Positions 631 through 15,751 of a DNA stretch of 64,000 nucleotides are shown piece after piece. The position numbers and the translations under genes are program-made. Source of the stretch: a virus. Lineage: Duplodnaviria > Caudoviricetes. Location: IMG/VR virus record IMGVR_UViG_3300036805_000167, positions 64,001 to 128,000 of that record; one strand, 5' to 3'. The notes under the pieces were generated by a model. It was not told the DNA's origin and searched no databases. It worked only from the letters and a program-made list of their open reading frames with translations. Numbering within the stretch: the first letter of the stretch is position 1; every line of letters begins with the position of its first letter.

Positions 631-1259
631 TGACCTGGGCGCGCGGTTCTCTCATCGTCCTGCTGGCGGCCATCGCCGCCGGCGCGCTGACCTTGTCCGC
701 GTCGAGCACGCTCCAGCTCGCGAGCCGCTCCGGCGTGCACAACGTCCAGTTCGCGTCGATCGCCGTGCTCGAGCTCGCCGCCATCGTCGGCACCGTGATG
801 TGGCTGCGCGCGTCGCACTGGCGCAGTCGCGTCGAGGCTGCGCTGCTCGTCGTCGGCGCGTCCGCGGTCACCGCGATCGGGGGCCTGGGCGCCTACGGGC
901 TGTTCGGGCTGGTCGGGCCCGCGTTCCTGGTCGCGTCGGTGCACGTCGCCTCCCGGGAGTGGCGTGCCGAGCCGCACGCCGCGCACGAACCGTCCGCGAC
1001 CGCGCCCGTCGCGCCCGTCGAGCCCTGGGGTCCGCCCGAGACCGTGCCCGAGACCGCGCCCGTCGCACCGTCCCCGCCCGCCACCCTGCACGCCGTGCCC
1101 GGGCTCGCACGCGAACGGTCCGACGGGCTCGACGCGCTCTCCCGCGACGACCTGCGCGAGCTCGCGAAGACGCGAGGCGTGACCCAGCGCGGCAGCGCGG
1201 ACGAGCTGCGCGTGCGGCTGCGTGCGGCGACCGCACCGAACCGGGAGGCCAGCGCATGA
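630..1259 (+). CDS. Spd/DUF2637-like multi-TM protein with C-terminal SAP-like DNA-binding domain, copy 1
   Basis: Four hydrophobic segments, Pro-rich linker, LSRDDLRELAKTRGVTQRGSADELRVRL SAP-like helix-extension-helix; translationally coupled. Confidence 0.6.
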   Translation: MTWARGSLIVLLAAIAAGALTLSASSTLQLASRSGVHNVQFASIAVLELAAIVGTVMWLRASHWRSRVEAALLVVGASAVTAIGGLGAYGLFGLVGPAFLVASVHVASREWRAEPHAAHEPSATAPVAPVEPWGPPETVPETAPVAPSPPATLHAVPGLARERSDGLDALSRDDLRELAKTRGVTQRGSADELRVRLRAATAPNREASA

Positions 1260-1714
1260 GCCGCACCACCATGTTCCACAACGGCGTCAAGATCACGGCC
1301 TCGGGCGGTGGCGGCATCGCGTGGCTCGTCGAGCTGATCGCGCTCGTCGGCGCCGTCGCGGGCATCGCCGCGGCGTTCCGGGCGCTGACCGCACCCGAAC
1401 CCGTGCTCGACGCCGCCATCGGGATCACCTTCGACGTCGCGGGCATCCTCGGCGCCCTCGGACTGCTCGGGATCGGGGGCTGGCTCGTCTACGACGCCGC
1501 GGCCTCCCGCGCGGCCGTGCGCCGGTTCGCGACCCACGACGACCGGCTCGACGCGGCCGCCGCGGCACGCCTGGAGCGCACGGCCGTGCGCCCGGCCGTC
1601 GACCCCGCACGCCTGCACGTGCCCGCCGACCGGCTCGACCGCACGGAGACCGTGCCCGCACGCGGCGACGAGGCCCTGGAGCCCGTGCCCGTCGAGCTGG
1701 ACGCGCTGGGCTGA
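1256..1714 (+). CDS. Two-TM membrane protein (transfer/spread module)
   Basis: ATG1256 overlaps previous stop (ATGA); MSRTTMF...; two TM helices. Confidence 0.6.
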   Translation: MSRTTMFHNGVKITASGGGGIAWLVELIALVGAVAGIAAAFRALTAPEPVLDAAIGITFDVAGILGALGLLGIGGWLVYDAAASRAAVRRFATHDDRLDAAAAARLERTAVRPAVDPARLHVPADRLDRTETVPARGDEALEPVPVELDALG

Positions 1715-1716
1715 CC

Positions 1717-3462
1717 ATGTCCGATCATCCCGTCGTGCGGGCGGCACGGTTCGCGGTCGGACACCCGCTGGACGGCACTCACCGCACCAACGCGGGCTGG
1801 ACGAAGCCTGGCACCGCACCGTACGACCCGGACCGTGCGGGCTGGTGGGCGCACCAGTCGCACCGCCGGCGTTCGGCGATCCGCTGGGGCGCCCTGCTCG
1901 GGATCACGGCCGCGATCATCGGGATCCTGCTCGCTCCGGGCGCGACCGCGTCCACGCTGCGCATCCCGGTCTGGTTCGGGATCGTCACCGCGGTCTACGT
2001 GGTGGTGCACAAGACCCGGCGCTGGGAGCACTACAAGCGCTGGATCGAGGCGATCGCGCTCGCGGTCGGCCCGCTGCTGGACATGCCCCGGCGCCGCAAC
2101 CCGCGCGAGTGGATTCACGTCCCGATCGGGCACCAGGACGACCCCGACAAGCCGGTGCTGCTCACGCTGCCCGAGAACTTCGCGATGAACGAGACGCGCC
2201 GCGAGCGTCTCGCCCTGCTCACGGCCGCGGTCGCGGGCGTGCAGAACCCGTTCTGGCAGTTCGACCTCGAAGCGCGCCCGCCGACGCTGCTGGTCTCGGC
2301 GATCCCGCAGCCGCCCACGCTGGTGGTGTTCTCCGAGATCGTGCGCGAGTGGGAGAACGCCGCCGACGACGAGCTGATCATCGGACTGGCCGCGGGCGGC
2401 GTCCCCGCCCGGGTGAGCCTGGGCGGGGACTCCCCGCACATCCTGTGCTCGATGGGCTCGGGTGGGGGCAAGTCCGAGTTCTGCGCCGGGATCGCGCTCC
2501 AGATGCGGCGCAAGGCCCGGCCCGCGCGGGTGATCTACATCGACGTGATCAAGCGCGGGGCGTCGGCGAAGTGGGCCAAGGGCGTCGACGGCATCGAGGT
2601 CATCCGCTCCACCGCGCTCGCCCACGACCTGCTGCTCGAGCTGTTCGCACAGGTCCAGGCCCGGTGCGAGAGCTACTGGGACCACGGCTACGACGCCGAG
2701 CAGCAGCGCGTGCTGATCATCGTCGACGAGGCGAACCGCACCACCCGCGAGCTGACCCGCTACTGGCGCGCGGAGTGCGAGGGCAAGGGCACCTCCCCGG
2801 CCGTGGACGCGATCGAGGGCATCCTGTTCGTCGGGCGCGAGGCGGCCACGCACGTGCTCACCGTCGGGCAGCGGATGTCGGCGGCCGCGTCCGGTGGCGG
2901 CGACGCCCGCGAGGCGTACGGCGTCAAGATCGGGAACCGGTTCTCGCCGCAGACCGCGCGGATGCTGTTCGGTGACGTCGGCGACGGCCGAGCCTCCACG
3001 CTGCCCCGCTCGTCGAACCACCCGGGACGCGTCCAGGTGGTCACCGGCGGCAGCGCGGTCGCCGTCCAGGTGCCGCTGTCGACCGACCGGGCCACGAAGG
3101 CGCTGCTGCCCGGGCCCGCGGCCTGGATCGCCGACGCGCCCCCGCTCGTCGTGCAGAGCGTCCGCCCAGCGATGTCGCCCAACACCGCGCGTGTAGGGGA
3201 TTCGCCGGTTCATGACGTCGGTCGACGTCACCTCGAGCCGGTCCCGAACGCGCCCGCGGACGCCGAGCCGCCCCCGATGTTGATCGCGCTGCCGGATGCT
3301 GTCGAGCAGCTCGACGGCGTGAGCCTGACCGCGCTCAAGAACGCCCGCGCCCGCGACAAGGACTTCCCCGAGCCCGCCCAGAAGGTGGGCCAGACCTACC
3401 TCTACGACCTCGACGAGCTCGCCCGCTGGGCGGCCAACCGCGCACAGGCTGGAGCCCGCTGA
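1717..3462 (+). CDS. TraB/FtsK-SpoIIIE-like DNA translocase, copy 1
   Basis: ATG1717 MSDHPVV; N-terminal TMs, Walker A-like SMGSGGGKS, Walker B VLIIVDE, GREAATHVLTVGQR, PGR motif, C-terminal wHTH-like YLYDLDELARW. Confidence 0.8.
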   Translation: MSDHPVVRAARFAVGHPLDGTHRTNAGWTKPGTAPYDPDRAGWWAHQSHRRRSAIRWGALLGITAAIIGILLAPGATASTLRIPVWFGIVTAVYVVVHKTRRWEHYKRWIEAIALAVGPLLDMPRRRNPREWIHVPIGHQDDPDKPVLLTLPENFAMNETRRERLALLTAAVAGVQNPFWQFDLEARPPTLLVSAIPQPPTLVVFSEIVREWENAADDELIIGLAAGGVPARVSLGGDSPHILCSMGSGGGKSEFCAGIALQMRRKARPARVIYIDVIKRGASAKWAKGVDGIEVIRSTALAHDLLLELFAQVQARCESYWDHGYDAEQQRVLIIVDEANRTTRELTRYWRAECEGKGTSPAVDAIEGILFVGREAATHVLTVGQRMSAAASGGGDAREAYGVKIGNRFSPQTARMLFGDVGDGRASTLPRSSNHPGRVQVVTGGSAVAVQVPLSTDRATKALLPGPAAWIADAPPLVVQSVRPAMSPNTARVGDSPVHDVGRRHLEPVPNAPADAEPPPMLIALPDAVEQLDGVSLTALKNARARDKDFPEPAQKVGQTYLYDLDELARWAANRAQAGAR

Positions 3463-11436: not shown

Positions 11437-11985
11437 GTGCCTCGCGTCGAGCAACGACGTGCTTCCGAGGAGTTCGGGGGCAAGCGCAAGCGCCGTACCC
11501 CCGGCCGTCGAGAGACGTCGTGGCAGCGCACGTCGCGGCGTGCGGGCAACGTGTTCCGCTACGGCCGCAAGGTGCACCGGCGTCACCGCGGCAAGACCGG
11601 GGCTGTGCTGTTCCTGGTGTCCTGCGCCGGCATCGCCGCGTCGATGGTTGCGTTCCAGGGCGCCGTGCAGCTCGTGACGATCGGGGCGTGCGGCGCGGGC
11701 ATGGTCGGCGGTTACGTGCTGGACCGGCGTGCGCACGCCAAGAGCGCACAGTCGACACGGCGGGTGTCGTTCGCCGACCGACGCCGTTACGCCACGAACC
11801 GTGCTGCTGGGCGTGCGTTCGATGACGACGACCCGTCGAGCACGCGTGTGCGGGTGCGGTCGCACACCCGTGACGGTGACGGCGTCGGCACGCACACCCG
11901 CGCACGCCCCGGCGCGCACGGCACAGCTGCGAAGCGTGCTGATCGGTGGGGTACCGAGGTCGACGACGAAGGGGGCACGGCGTGA
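11437..11985 (+). CDS. Basic membrane protein
   Basis: Arg-rich with two TM helices; VRVRSHTRDG..V..HTR motif. Confidence 0.5.
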   Translation: MPRVEQRRASEEFGGKRKRRTPGRRETSWQRTSRRAGNVFRYGRKVHRRHRGKTGAVLFLVSCAGIAASMVAFQGAVQLVTIGACGAGMVGGYVLDRRAHAKSAQSTRRVSFADRRRYATNRAAGRAFDDDDPSSTRVRVRSHTRDGDGVGTHTRARPGAHGTAAKRADRWGTEVDDEGGTA

Positions 11986-14900
11986 CCGTCACCGACGACC
12001 CGAGTACCGCTGTCGCCCGCCGGCCGGTCGGTGAGCTGGTGCTGTACGGACCCCTGGACGCCGCCGACACGCTGGTCTACGGCGCGCAGTCGGTGGTGGT
12101 GGGTGCGCTGGCGTTCATCTACCAGGACTGGTTGCCGTGGGTCCGCGACGACGCCCACACCGAGCGGCTCGACAAGGCCGACCGGATCGCCGGGGCCGCC
12201 GGGGGGCGGTTGTCGCTGCGGGAGCGTGAGGCGTGGCGGGAGCGCCGGGACCGGCGGATGCGTCGCACCTGGCAGGCCGTGTCGCTGTGCGTGCTGCTGG
12301 CCGTGGCGACGTGCGTGTCGGGGTTCGCGCCGTGGCCGTCGATCGGGTACGGGCTGGCCGTGACGGCCGTGATGGTCGTGCTCGCGCTGGTGGTCGACTC
12401 GAAAGAGGCGTCACGGTGGCTGCTGCGGCTGTGCGTGCTGCCGTGCGTGTGCTCCGTGCCGTTCGGTATCACGACGTGGCGGTGGTGGCCCGCGGCCGTG
12501 CTGTGCGTGCTGGCCGTGGCGGTGTGCGTGTGGCGTGGCCTGAACGTCACGCCACCGGCACGCCGTGACGGTGGCGGCCCGAAGCTGACCCGCCGGGACT
12601 GGGCGACGTTGTGGGCCTCGGCGTCGGGCGTGCTCGCCGAGCGTGGCAAAGAGCTGGAGCGCACCGGTGACGCACACCCGATCAGCGCGGACGGCACAGA
12701 GCTCGGTGCCGGGTTCGGAGCTCGATGCGCCGACCCCGTGAGCCCGGACGACGTGCGTGCCCTGGAGCGCAATCTCGGGTTCCCGGTGGGCTCCTCGGCG
12801 TGGGTGCCGAACCCGAAGGCCGCGGGCACCGGGGAGCTGCGGCTGCTCTGGGCCGACCCGCTGCCGCCGAAGGCGATGCCGCGCCGGGAGCCGATGTCGC
12901 TGTCCTACACCCGGCCGTTCGAGGTGGCCCGACGCACCGGGGGCCGCGTGACGTCACTGAGCCTGAATCGGACACGCATGCTTTTTGCGGGCAATTCGGG
13001 GTGTATTGCGCCATGGACGCGCATCTACCTCCCCGACCGCGACGAGCACGTTCGTGTCGATGATCTCGCCGCAGCCGGAGAGGCAGTCACAGTCCAGGCA
13101 TGGGATCCGTCTCGTGGCTGGGTTCGGGCTCAGACTCACGGGCCCCCGTACGTAAAAGGGACCGCGGCTTTGTATGAGGTGCGGTGCTCGGACGGGGCCA
13201 CCATGACAGTGACGGGTCAGCACCGGTTCCTGACCCCGACAGGATGGCGTCGACTCGACTCGTTGCGCGCTGGACAGCTTCTCGCCGCACCTGCTCGCGC
13301 CGGTGGGCAGGGAGCTTCGGGATACCCGTCAGGGTCGTGCGTAGGTGCTCCGCGTTCGACGGGAACAGGCGCAGGTTGTCCGGGTGGTTGTTCGATGTGT
13401 CGCCGTCACGATGGTCGATCACCTCGTCCGGCGTCAGGTATCGGCCGAGCCGGTCTTCCATCACGACGCGGTGGACGGACACGTGGCCGTCCCATCGTTT
13501 CGCCTGAGGATGCTCCGGCATCCGCACGCTCACGTAGCCGTGCTTGTCGACGTGATAGCCCCGTAGCTGGGTGTTCCGTGACAGGGGCACAGCCTGGTTG
13601 CGGATCGGCACGCCCTGTTCCGGAAGCTGTCGGTACAGCCACTTCCACCCCACGCCCAGCTCTCCTGCGATGGGGCGGAGCCCCCAGCCCTGCTGGTACA
13701 GCTCGACGGCTCGCACGAGGGTGGTGGGGTCCAGCATCCGTGCAGTCTCTGCTGGTGTCTTCCCGTTCGTTTTTCTCACTGGCCACCCCAGCTTGGCGAA
13801 CTGCTGACTCACGGCCGTCTGAGTCACTCCGCAGCGCCTCGCAACTTCCGTGCAGGGCAACAACTCCTCAGTGTGCAGGCGGTACGCATCTCTTACTGAC
13901 ATCGACCACGTCGTTTCCTTCGGCACCACTTGATGGTACCAGGTGGCTCCGGATAGAGAGCGTTACACCTGCTGGTAAAGGTGTGTATTACGACCTGACG
14001 GTGCCTGGTCCTGAGTGCTACGTGGCCGAGGGGCTGCTAAACCACAACAGTGGGAAGTCGCAGGCGCTGCAGGATGTGCTGGACGCGGTGTGCGACATGC
14101 CCGACGCGACGTGGTCGGCGATCGACCGCCAGGAGGGCCCGACGTTCAAGGCGTATCGCAATCAGTGGAACCGCACCGGCACCTTCCACGAGAGCGACGA
14201 CGCGCTAGGTGAGATCAAGCGGCTCCGGGCGCTGTGCAAGCAGCGCAACCGCCGTCTCGACGAGGGCATGGATGCCGACCTGGACGGCGAGGTCGACCAG
14301 TGGTGGATCGTCGACGAATCCGGCGAGACCCCGGACCGCCGCGGGCACGTGCTGTTCATCGATGAGCTGTCCTCGGCGACCACCGATAAGGAGTTCGCCG
14401 AGAACCTGACCCTGCTGCTCGAGGTGTGCCGCAAGTCGAGCGTGTCGGTGGTGATGGCCAGCCCCGACCTGGATACCAACCGCGTGCCGCGGGCGGTGCT
14501 CGACCAGGTCAACGTCACGGTCGGGTTCGCCTGCCCGTTCTCGGATGCGGTGCAGATGTTCGGCAAGGGCTCGACGCAGTCTGGCTGGGAGCCGTACTCG
14601 CTGGTCACGGCCACTGACGACGAGCCCAACGACGCCGGCAAGGCGTTTATCCGCGGCGGCGGCTACAACCTGCCCGAGCTGCACCGCTTCGGCGCGATGG
14701 ACCGCGAGGAGATCGTGGCGCGCAACCGCGCGCGGCGGCTGTGGCGCGAGCGGATGGGGATGAGCGCTGACGTCACGCCGGACGACGTCGAAGACGCCGA
14801 GATCGTCAGCGACGAAGAGATGGCGATCCGCGCGGCGCTGGAACTCTGCGGCGACCGCGCCGGACTTCCGGTCGCCGAGGCGAAGAAGTCCCTGACTGAC

Positions 14901-15029
14901 GCACAGATCGCGTCGGTGCGGTCGGTGGCCCCGTCCCGCCCGACGCACGACCCCGGCGCGCGTCAGTCAGTCCGCGCGTACCGGCGGGAAGACCTGGTCA
15001 GCGCGTTGGAGGCGTTCGACGAGGCCTGA
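11982..15029 (+). CDS. TraB/FtsK-like DNA translocase, copy 2, containing an intein in Walker A
   Basis: GTG11982 with GAAGGGGG RBS; N-terminal TMs; AGNSG|intein|SGKS; Walker B HVLFIDE; C-terminal RAYRREDL. Confidence 0.8.
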   Translation: MTVTDDPSTAVARRPVGELVLYGPLDAADTLVYGAQSVVVGALAFIYQDWLPWVRDDAHTERLDKADRIAGAAGGRLSLREREAWRERRDRRMRRTWQAVSLCVLLAVATCVSGFAPWPSIGYGLAVTAVMVVLALVVDSKEASRWLLRLCVLPCVCSVPFGITTWRWWPAAVLCVLAVAVCVWRGLNVTPPARRDGGGPKLTRRDWATLWASASGVLAERGKELERTGDAHPISADGTELGAGFGARCADPVSPDDVRALERNLGFPVGSSAWVPNPKAAGTGELRLLWADPLPPKAMPRREPMSLSYTRPFEVARRTGGRVTSLSLNRTRMLFAGNSGCIAPWTRIYLPDRDEHVRVDDLAAAGEAVTVQAWDPSRGWVRAQTHGPPYVKGTAALYEVRCSDGATMTVTGQHRFLTPTGWRRLDSLRAGQLLAAPARAGGQGASGYPSGSCVGAPRSTGTGAGCPGGCSMCRRHDGRSPRPASGIGRAGLPSRRGGRTRGRPIVSPEDAPASARSRSRACRRDSPVAGCSVTGAQPGCGSARPVPEAVGTATSTPRPALLRWGGAPSPAGTARRLARGWWGPASVQSLLVSSRSFFSLATPAWRTADSRPSESLRSASQLPCRATTPQCAGGTHLLLTSTTSFPSAPLDGTRWLRIESVTPAGKGVYYDLTVPGPECYVAEGLLNHNSGKSQALQDVLDAVCDMPDATWSAIDRQEGPTFKAYRNQWNRTGTFHESDDALGEIKRLRALCKQRNRRLDEGMDADLDGEVDQWWIVDESGETPDRRGHVLFIDELSSATTDKEFAENLTLLLEVCRKSSVSVVMASPDLDTNRVPRAVLDQVNVTVGFACPFSDAVQMFGKGSTQSGWEPYSLVTATDDEPNDAGKAFIRGGGYNLPELHRFGAMDREEIVARNRARRLWRERMGMSADVTPDDVEDAEIVSDEEMAIRAALELCGDRAGLPVAEAKKSLTDAQIASVRSVAPSRPTHDPGARQSVRAYRREDLVSALEAFDEA
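13002..14048 (+). mobile_element. Intein (349 aa), Cys1...His-Asn/Ser+1, no in-frame endonuclease
   Basis: Block A CIAPWTRIYL, block B TVTGQHRFLT, block F/G VYYDLTVPGPECYVAEGLLNHN then S; excision restores GNSGSGKS. Confidence 0.93.
13087..13902 (-). CDS. HTH + HNH homing endonuclease nested antisense within the intein
   Basis: VHRVVMEDRLGRYLTPDEVIDHRDGDTSNNHPDNL HNH motif, KHGYVSV, two N-terminal HTH-like segments; GAAGGA RBS upstream of ATG13902. Confidence 0.88.
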   Translation of the reverse strand: MSVRDAYRLHTEELLPCTEVARRCGVTQTAVSQQFAKLGWPVRKTNGKTPAETARMLDPTTLVRAVELYQQGWGLRPIAGELGVGWKWLYRQLPEQGVPIRNQAVPLSRNTQLRGYHVDKHGYVSVRMPEHPQAKRWDGHVSVHRVVMEDRLGRYLTPDEVIDHRDGDTSNNHPDNLRLFPSNAEHLRTTLTGIPKLPAHRREQVRREAVQRATSRVDAILSGSGTGADPSLSWWPRPSTAPHTKPRSLLRTGARESEPEPSHETDPMPGL

Positions 15030-15074: not shown

Positions 15075-15269
15075 GTGACCGAGCCATCGGGGTACGACAC
15101 GCCGACCGAGGACGACGTCTCGGAAGCGTTCGAGGACGGCTTCCGCGAGGGCATGCAGGCGGCTCGTTGCGGTGATGGCTGCCAGCACCACCGCACATGT
15201 CCGCAGAGCGACGAGTACCGGCTACCGCTGCGGGACAAGCTCAAGTCGCTGTTCGGGGGGCAGCAGTGA
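15075..15269 (+). CDS. Hypothetical protein
   Basis: GAGGAG RBS; CGDGC..H..C. Confidence 0.5.
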   Translation: MTEPSGYDTPTEDDVSEAFEDGFREGMQAARCGDGCQHHRTCPQSDEYRLPLRDKLKSLFGGQQ

Positions 15270-15751
15270 GCCACTCGACGGTGGTTGTGGTCGTCACGGT
15301 GCTGGTCGTCATGCTGGCGCTGTTCGGCTACGGCTTCTACCGCGGCGCCCGCTACGGCGGCAAGCTGTCCGGTGCTGCGCCGCGGCCCTCGCGAGCTCCG
15401 CACCCGGACGGCAAGGGCTGGGACCCGACCGCGGTGTACGTCTACCTCGACGCCGACCAGGCGGTGCTCTACGCCGGCATCTCGTCGGCGCCGCAGATCA
15501 GGGCTCGACAGCACTGGGACGCTCCCGATGAGGTTGAGCTGTGCTCGCAGGTGGCGAACATCCGCGCGCACTGGTTCCCGGACCGCTACGCCGCGCTCTG
15601 TGTGGAATGGGCGCTGATCCACTACTTCGACCCGCCGTACAACAAGGCGCGTAGCGGCAGCTGCGACGCGTGGACCCAGCCGCGCCCGCCGATCGTGCCG
15701 GTGACGGTGAAGATCCCTCGTCGACGGGCGCTGGCGCGCTCCTTGCGCTAG
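15266..15751 (+). CDS. GIY-YIG nuclease with N-terminal TM anchor
   Basis: AVYVYLD...VLYAGIS..PQIRARQH...AALCVEWALI...PPYN; N-terminal VVVVVTVLVVMLALFGY. Confidence 0.7.
   Translation: MSHSTVVVVVTVLVVMLALFGYGFYRGARYGGKLSGAAPRPSRAPHPDGKGWDPTAVYVYLDADQAVLYAGISSAPQIRARQHWDAPDEVELCSQVANIRAHWFPDRYAALCVEWALIHYFDPPYNKARSGSCDAWTQPRPPIVPVTVKIPRRRALARSLR

Follow-up and report, generated by a model that had tools for sequence, protein, structure and literature searches.

The DNA analysed here (the window) is a stretch of 64,000 nucleotides from a 138.8-kb IMG/VR virus record with a completeness rating of 99%. Within it, a gene for an FtsK/SpoIIIE-like (TraB-like) DNA translocase is interrupted in its Walker A loop by a class-1 intein, and inside that intein, on the opposite strand, lies a separate gene for an HNH endonuclease. 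Both reading frames are open through the shared DNA, the synonymous codons of the nuclease gene are arranged so that no stop arises in the intein frame, and the same layout recurs in a large family of viral inteins. We interpret the pair as a two-strand selfish element, consisting of the intein and a backwards nuclease gene, and assign to this reading a probability of roughly 0.7. An intein with a separate HNH gene on its other strand and with stop avoidance in the sense frame had been proposed in a preliminary description of this DNA; the arrangement is confirmed for this locus, and for the family the evidence is overwhelming.

An intein and a nuclease gene on opposite strands

The preliminary description had placed a canonical intein at 13002-14048, with a low-complexity Arg/Gly/Ser/Pro centre free of endonuclease motifs, and both statements hold. 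The sequence begins with a Cys codon at 13002 and ends in ...LLNHN (HN at 14043-14048), followed by a Ser codon at 14049; block B reads TGQH (intein residues 71-74), the Pfam family Intein_splicing (PF14890) is matched with 38.3 bits (cut-off 35.8), and Cys1, His74, His348 and Asn349 are invariant across 40 family members. AlphaFold models of the intein and of the antisense protein were each built on 40 relatives. In the intein model, residues 1-100 and 311-349 are predicted as all-beta lobes with a predicted local distance difference test score (pLDDT) of 93-98, and together they make up one Hint domain. The linker of ~210 residues between them, rich in Arg, Gly, Ser and Pro, has pLDDT 34-60 and no secondary structure, and a Pfam scan of residues ~101-310 matched no family. 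On these features the class-1 intein looks splicing-competent, and we infer that it splices.

The intein makes up residues 353-701 of the 1027-residue precursor and splits the Walker A loop between Gly and Ser (GNSG/SGKS, the slash marking the insertion point). Excision of the intein sequence joins the two halves into GNSGSGKS, the same sequence as in an intein-less homologue of 666 residues (P0003), which reads AGNSGSGKS and is 70% identical to the C-extein over 236 residues (BLASTP). At the corresponding codons, L075, whose site is empty, reads GCCGGCAACTCCGGG before and TCCGGGAAGTCT after the insertion point. P0003 matches PHROG 12531 'FtsK/SpoIIIE-like protein' (5.3e-22) and, weakly, Pfam FtsK_SpoIIIE (PF01580; E 0.085), while the window exteins gave no match to PF01580; since the PHROG match is strong but the Pfam match weak, the assignment of the host gene as FtsK/SpoIIIE-like (TraB-like) is supported but not firm. 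The GC content is 0.59-0.66 in the intein versus 0.72-0.75 just upstream, and a blastn search of cultured phages with the whole gene returned no match.

The antisense open reading frame (ORF) extends in full from 13087 to 13929 on the minus strand, lies wholly within the intein and spans block B, in agreement with the earlier claim of a coherent protein with two helix-turn-helix (HTH) modules and an HNH domain. Its product matches Pfam HNH_3 (PF13392) with 2.9e-10 and 40.1 bits (cut-off 24.8), as well as HTH_23, PHROG families of HNH endonucleases (5e-21) and the HNH endonucleases of cultured phages (39-43% identity). His152, His172, Asn180, Asn184 and His194, which are invariant in 40 relatives, are all present in the window protein; the catalytic set among them is His172, Asn180, Asn184 and His194. 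Its model continues beyond the catalytic core with a helix at residues 207-231 and a disordered tail at 232-279. As both models are drawn, ~75 nt code for predicted folded parts of both proteins at once, namely the HNH helix on one strand and block B with the strands that follow it on the other.

As to where translation of the nuclease would begin, the earlier proposal survives in part. Its extended -10 region is kept as a candidate, but the ATG at 13902, with GAAGGA 13 nt upstream, is a less likely start than a leaderless GTG at 13926, which comparison within the family favours. In five relatives (L077, L078, L079, L148 and L159) the equivalent place likewise has TANNNT and, after six bases, an ATG or GTG, and Shine-Dalgarno motifs take the place of this layout in L080 and in many members of lower GC content; as an expression signal of the high-GC relatives the recurring layout is suggestive only. 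A scan of 12900-14150 for sigma-70 consensus promoters and terminators found none, with a model that excludes actinobacterial promoters consisting of a -10 element only. The features of the locus are collected in Table 1.

Table 1. Features of the two-strand locus (positions in the window)
Feature	Positions	Strand	Basis
FtsK/SpoIIIE-like (TraB-like) P-loop ATPase precursor, 1027 aa, putative start	11946..15029	+	ORF listing
Presumed homing site, upstream and downstream halves	12975..13001 and 14049-14075	+	comparison with intein-less L075
Class-1 intein, 349 aa, Cys1 to Asn349, Ser next	13002..14048	+	ORF, Pfam, homologue alignment
N-terminal splicing lobe, residues 1-100, blocks A and B	13002..13301	+	pLDDT 93-98, beta strands; match to N-lobe hidden Markov model (HMM)
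Sense-frame linker, residues 101-310, stop-free read-through of the antisense HNH gene	13302..13931	+	predicted disordered
C-terminal splicing lobe, residues 311-349, blocks F and G, ending HN	13932..14048	+	pLDDT 95-98; C-lobe HMM 3.4e-22
Antisense HNH endonuclease gene, 279 codons from GTG 13926, plus TGA 13087-13089; alternative starts 13929, 13902	13087..13926	-	
HNH_3 catalytic core, HNH residues 124-198	13333..13557	-	Pfam HNH_3; pLDDT >90
Two helix-turn-helix DNA-binding modules, HNH residues 11-45 and 58-103	13618..13896	-	Pfam HTH_23, weaker HTH families; model helices
Segment with both products predicted folded, HNH helix 207-231 opposite intein residues 78-103	13234..13308	-	models
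Candidate leaderless promoter TGGTACCAT (extended -10), six bases, GTG start at 13926	13927..13941	-	layout in relatives

Codon register, stop avoidance and selection

The two frames are offset such that codon position 1 of the HNH gene pairs with position 1 of the sense frame, and the third HNH position coincides with the second sense position. With this offset, sense-frame stops arise at the HNH codon junctions NTC-A, NTT-A and NCT-A, the first of which had already been recognized in the preliminary description as a source of TGA. The codon-shuffle test suggested there was carried out by permuting synonymous codons within each HNH gene, such that the protein and its codon usage were kept, and by counting the stops that resulted in the sense frame. 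In the window 0 sense stops are observed, against a mean of 3.54 after shuffling, and 6/500 shuffles were stop-free. Across the family, all 81 non-redundant loci (81/81), with GC contents from 34 to 71%, share one register and have zero sense stops, while the shuffle means range from 1.9 to 10.9 stops per locus and stop-free shuffles are at most 9% at any locus. For the relatives at 34-45% GC, in which both strands are likewise open, no shuffle was ever stop-free. The loci were selected by HNH homology and not by openness of the frame; inteins that are broken or have diverged may nevertheless have escaped the HMMs for the splicing lobes. Both of the remaining antisense frames are interrupted, by 4-7 stops in the window and by as many as 20 at other loci, and free-standing relatives of the nuclease read in the same register have 11 stops in 201 codons (L093) and 12 stops in 184 codons (L144).

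Selection on the nuclease can be recognized in the distribution of differences between related genes. In 16 pairs with 75-97% nucleotide identity, the per-site difference is 0.108 at the first HNH codon position, 0.084 at the second and 0.387 at the third. Because the differences are concentrated at HNH position 3, which is position 2 of the sense codon, it is the HNH protein that is conserved, and its frame is under purifying selection; the sense read-through is free to vary provided that stops are avoided.

Distribution and origin of the family

A search of viral contigs with two FtsK-type inteins returned related inteins in large terminases (L077-L079) and in a giant helicase-like ORF (L080), in each case at the P-loop. 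All of them have a centre that resembles junk sequence and, on the antisense strand, an HTH-HNH ORF that keeps to the same register. We then considered ~160 loci fetched by HNH homology alone, whose opposite strand was scanned with small HMMs of the two splicing lobes. Both lobes were found in one open frame flanking the HNH gene at 107 loci, only one lobe was detected at 22, and the HNH alone at 29; at one locus no HNH was detected by HMM. At two loci, L037 and L103, the N and C lobes stand in different frames, and these, counted as broken, are the sole such cases among the HNH-fetched loci; a frameshift, decay of the copy, an error of assembly or a genuinely split arrangement may lie behind them. 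Nearly all insertions are in Walker A loops (GGRG/C...HN/SGKS and similar). Also in the vicinity of the family, by score against its HMM, are the free-standing HNH genes L093:324-1028 (E 5e-62) and L144:127-933 (E 1e-30), with which, as outgroups, it could be dated when the intein captured the nuclease.

An exhaustive search with a profile made from five full-length inteins, junk included, matched 5095 cluster representatives at E <= 1e-3, of which 128 reached E <= 1e-30. In many of these the match covers the whole intein profile in one stretch. The hosts sampled among these matches are Terminase_6 proteins, ResIII/Helicase_C giants, FtsK_SpoIIIE and AAA_25 proteins. P0005, P0006, P0009, P0010 and P0014 are among the best matches, many of which are giant proteins of 2000-5800 residues; P0005, as an example, combines ResIII, Helicase_C and a topoisomerase I core. 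A second FtsK-type gene (P0015/L164) has a long intein with a 301-codon antisense HNH frame.

The arrangement is also present in cultured phages and in prokaryote assemblies. In Pectobacterium phage Sabo (L160, PQ008974.1, 37606-39870; 0.48 GC) both strands are open, and the intein-bearing large terminase, beside the portal gene, is annotated as a 754-aa 'hypothetical protein'. In Pseudoalteromonas phage PHS3 (L161, KX912252.1, 17336-19857; 0.41 GC) one 708-codon frame is open through the terminase, but in the annotation the HNH is called, the terminase is truncated around it, and 'terminase small subunit' is the label given to the N-extein piece. Prokaryote assemblies yielded nothing when scanned with the intein alignment and 32 loci when scanned with the HNH alignment; 16 of the 32 have the layout, including those of isolates such as Polaromonas sp. 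CG9_12. With tblastn, a terminase intein with its low-complexity centre found no match in phages, and a mini-intein found only distant inteins in phages and plasmids.

With regard to the history of the element at this locus, the intein-less and mini-intein alleles that the preliminary description had proposed to look for both turned up. The intein-less one is P0003/L075. The mini-intein is in P0004, a distant FtsK-like protein (Pfam FtsK_SpoIIIE 26.8 bits, cut-off 24), and is the only related mini-intein in an FtsK-like gene. It has 158 residues, occupies the same site and is 59% identical to the window intein over the aligned residues, with identity peaking in the splicing lobes. Its short linker aligns with the window DNA up to the codon of the last HNH histidine and, read antisense in the family register, encodes YSNAQHLRMTLTG...RRVDAILQESGSDADPS, which corresponds to the final ~50 residues of the HNH protein. 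Since this 3' tail of the HNH gene is retained, the mini-intein is a deletion derivative of an HNH-bearing ancestor and not the ancestor itself; a derivative of this kind is what a homing cycle would predict. Likewise, the 81 relatives have the register in common and, opposite block B, homologous HNH tails, from which it follows that the composite element is old and inherited as a unit. The earlier suggestion that a free-standing HNH gene invaded a mini-intein in reverse therefore does not apply to this locus, given the shared register and tail and the P0004 remnant, although such an event may have been the start of the whole family.

The FtsK-type lineage has lost the usual HNH stop (after ...GADPSP in the terminase relatives) and continues as ...PSLSWWPRPSTAP. 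This extension is found in the window (13087-13230), in L072:6931-7404, in the mini-intein remnant and in L164, and its presence in the window, the remnant and L164 marks a shared lineage. The nearest full-length relatives are terminase inteins, with 58% identity in the splicing lobes, 43% in the HNH and unrelated exteins; a related intein between unrelated exteins implies a switch of host gene by way of the shared P-loop site. The distribution is patchy, with an intein-less homologue on one side and the same intein lineage in large terminases, helicases, FtsK-like and AAA_25 genes on the other. We lean towards the view that the antisense-HNH inteins are one ancient lineage, with a single register and a single junction over block B, that has spread through the P-loop sites of phage large terminases, giant helicases, AAA_25 proteins and conjugative FtsK/TraB translocases in hosts of 34-71% GC.

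Two other observations concern the surroundings of the gene. A second FtsK/TraB-like paralogue in the same genome (window 1222-3462, plus strand) is free of inteins and reads GSGGGKS at Walker A; the codons of this P-loop are unlike those of the invaded site, so it may not be a target. In L075, a gene of 160 aa with a faint GIY-YIG match (L075:3543-4025) follows the intein-less homologue, and the window gene at 15266-15751 has the equivalent position after the translocase; being at an equivalent place in both, this second nuclease gene is syntenic and independent of the intein.

Proposed mechanism, rival explanations and known systems

These results can be put together in the following scheme. 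The class-1 intein sits within the Walker A loop of a TraB/FtsK-like DNA translocase and would have to splice out to restore GNSGSGKS, and the slot that usually holds an in-frame endonuclease would be taken by a separate antisense gene, with its own start signals and an HTH-HTH-HNH_3 (I-HmuI-like) product. This nuclease would cut or nick intein-less copies of the P-loop-coding site, and repair from an intein-bearing copy would duplicate the whole unit (homing). The P-loop sequence is common to many NTPases, which would allow occasional jumps between unrelated genes such as those for large terminases, giant helicases and FtsK/TraB. Because the host frame must pass through the backwards gene, HNH codons would be chosen without NTC-A, NTT-A or NCT-A junctions, and the resulting read-through would be a disordered tether of ~210 residues between the two splicing lobes. 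Expression of the HNH gene, the specificity of its cleavage and active homing of this copy are what we infer from the sequence.

Several observations weigh against this scheme. For the window alone the avoidance of stops, with its 6/500 stop-free shuffles, is modest, and the shuffle leaves dinucleotides at codon junctions unpreserved. The best nuclease match by both fold and profile, I-HmuI (1u3e), is a weak one: in Foldseek it has rank 2 and probability 1.00, but E 0.03 and a template modelling (TM) score of 0.23-0.35, and the profile match has E 0.009 with 23% identity over 91 columns. Between the window HNH and its nearest relatives, identity is no higher than 34-46%; with the closest of them at 46% and synonymous sites saturated, recent selection on this copy is unmeasurable. 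Its ORF overruns the usual stop by ~45 codons into a predicted disordered tail, the TraB-like paralogue might allow this copy to tolerate decay, and a single run is listed as containing the window DNA, a DNA run (soil metagenome, probably the sample from which the record came), with no RNA run. Some of these points would suit a copy that belongs to a real family but no longer homes, its HNH being inactive or unexpressed and its sense frame kept open only through the host's need for TraB, or by an arrival too recent for stops to have accumulated. A relic of this kind would be in keeping with the modest local shuffle result, the loss of the HNH stop, a possible relaxation of selection by the paralogue and the mini-intein relative that has already lost most of the HNH gene. 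We nevertheless regard it as unlikely: the HNH frame is intact over 279 codons and has all the family-invariant residues, its core is modelled with high confidence, and the promoter-like context of its start is conserved.

Still less probable, in our estimation, is that the HNH acts on its own, as a selfish or accessory nuclease to which the dispensable loop of the intein offers a safe harbour, and that it does not mobilize the intein but might serve in phage competition or cut elsewhere. The close free-standing relatives L093 and L144 would agree with this, as would the fact that the HNH cleavage site is only presumed. On the other hand, HNH and splicing lobes diverge together (Spearman 0.49; 3235 pairs, not independent), one register and one junction are found in all 81 loci, and the two parts occur together at the same P-loop site in unrelated genes, as expected if a single unit moves to a single kind of target. 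That long open frames on the two strands are a by-product of GC-rich DNA, one of the readings being meaningless, is suggested by the 69% GC of the window and its many overlapping ORFs, but this explanation has next to no probability left: both readings match curated families, the AT-richer relatives are open on both strands where shuffles never reach zero stops, and the remaining antisense frames are interrupted. Chance overlap is thus refuted by the family matches, the stop-avoidance shuffles and the codon-position differences.

The two-strand selfish element that we favour has precedents. An antisense LAGLIDADG endonuclease is known from the Synechocystis DnaX intein (Gorbalenya 1998, Nucleic Acids Res 26:1741, as cited in bioRxiv 10.1101/2025.01.02.630785; also Gogarten 2002), a case revisited in a 2026 preprint, and antisense LAGLIDADG or VSR-like endonucleases have been described in actinophage inteins (Gosselin, Arsenault, Gogarten, bioRxiv 10.1101/2025.01.02.630785), those of the minor-capsid inteins being LAGLIDADG. 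The same work reports 63 non-canonical inteins of all four types and lists HNH only as an in-frame domain. As in the window, these inteins are otherwise normal and have a separate opposite-strand ORF in the endonuclease slot, with a sense frame that is read through without a recognisable fold; as in the window family, their distribution suggests continued invasion and phage large terminases are among the hosts. The window differs from the published antisense types in its enzyme, which is an HTH-HNH_3 nuclease and not LAGLIDADG or VSR-like, and in its FtsK/TraB-like host, and its family is far larger, with 128 cluster representatives at E <= 1e-30 against the 63 published non-canonical cases. 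The novelty left open in the preliminary description is accordingly partial. Antisense endonucleases in inteins have been published (LAGLIDADG in 1998, VSR-like in 2025), but an antisense HNH in an intein was not found in the literature searched, in which Gorbalenya 1998 is represented by the papers that cite it. The principle of an antisense endonuclease is known, then; the HNH nuclease type and the FtsK/TraB host are new, and the large family is undescribed in that literature.

Other systems share single components with the window. In-frame HNH inteins (1997, as cited in bioRxiv 10.1101/2025.01.02.630785) likewise combine an intein with an HNH in the slot between blocks B and F, but as described there the nuclease is within the intein polypeptide, whereas in the window it would be a separate opposite-strand protein whose expression is uncoupled from the host gene. 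The hidden alternate-frame endonucleases of actinophage insertions mentioned in the preliminary description correspond to ShiLan (Arsenault et al. 2025, PMC11855218), in which an out-of-frame HNH is encoded on the same strand within a methylase insertion that is not an intein. There too a hidden HNH lies in an insertion read through without stops and a leaderless GTG start is proposed; the ShiLan HNH is in another frame of the same strand, in an insertion without splicing domains, while that of the window is antisense and in a bona fide intein. I-HmuI (PDB 1u3e) also joins an HNH_3 core to helix-turn-helix modules, but it is encoded by a group I intron and has its HTH at the C-terminus, unlike the window protein with two HTH modules before the core. 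In fractured genes (Dassa et al. 2009, PMC2677866), finally, a free-standing endonuclease gene also lies between the N- and C-terminal parts of an intein, but there the host gene is split and trans-splicing takes place, whereas in the window a single frame passes through the nuclease gene.

Gene callers keep one of two overlapping genes, as can be seen in Sabo and PHS3, and the antisense-HNH family is therefore invisible in databases. Its members indicate that a homing endonuclease can serve an intein from outside the intein polypeptide, and they provide a large natural data set of two opposite-strand genes that share ~630-840 bases, one of the frames being constrained only against stops. An element that targets the P-loop of a conjugative-type translocase on a phage-like genome links the gene pools of phages and plasmids. 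In terms of tools, splicing lobes are predicted to tolerate a disordered tether of ~210 residues, and the nucleases are candidates for new site-specific enzymes. If the family is indeed a single ancient lineage, it would be among the commonest viral intein architectures, undescribed and systematically mis-annotated, and it would offer a natural model of long-term dual-strand coding, including a stretch of ~75 nt in which both products are folded.

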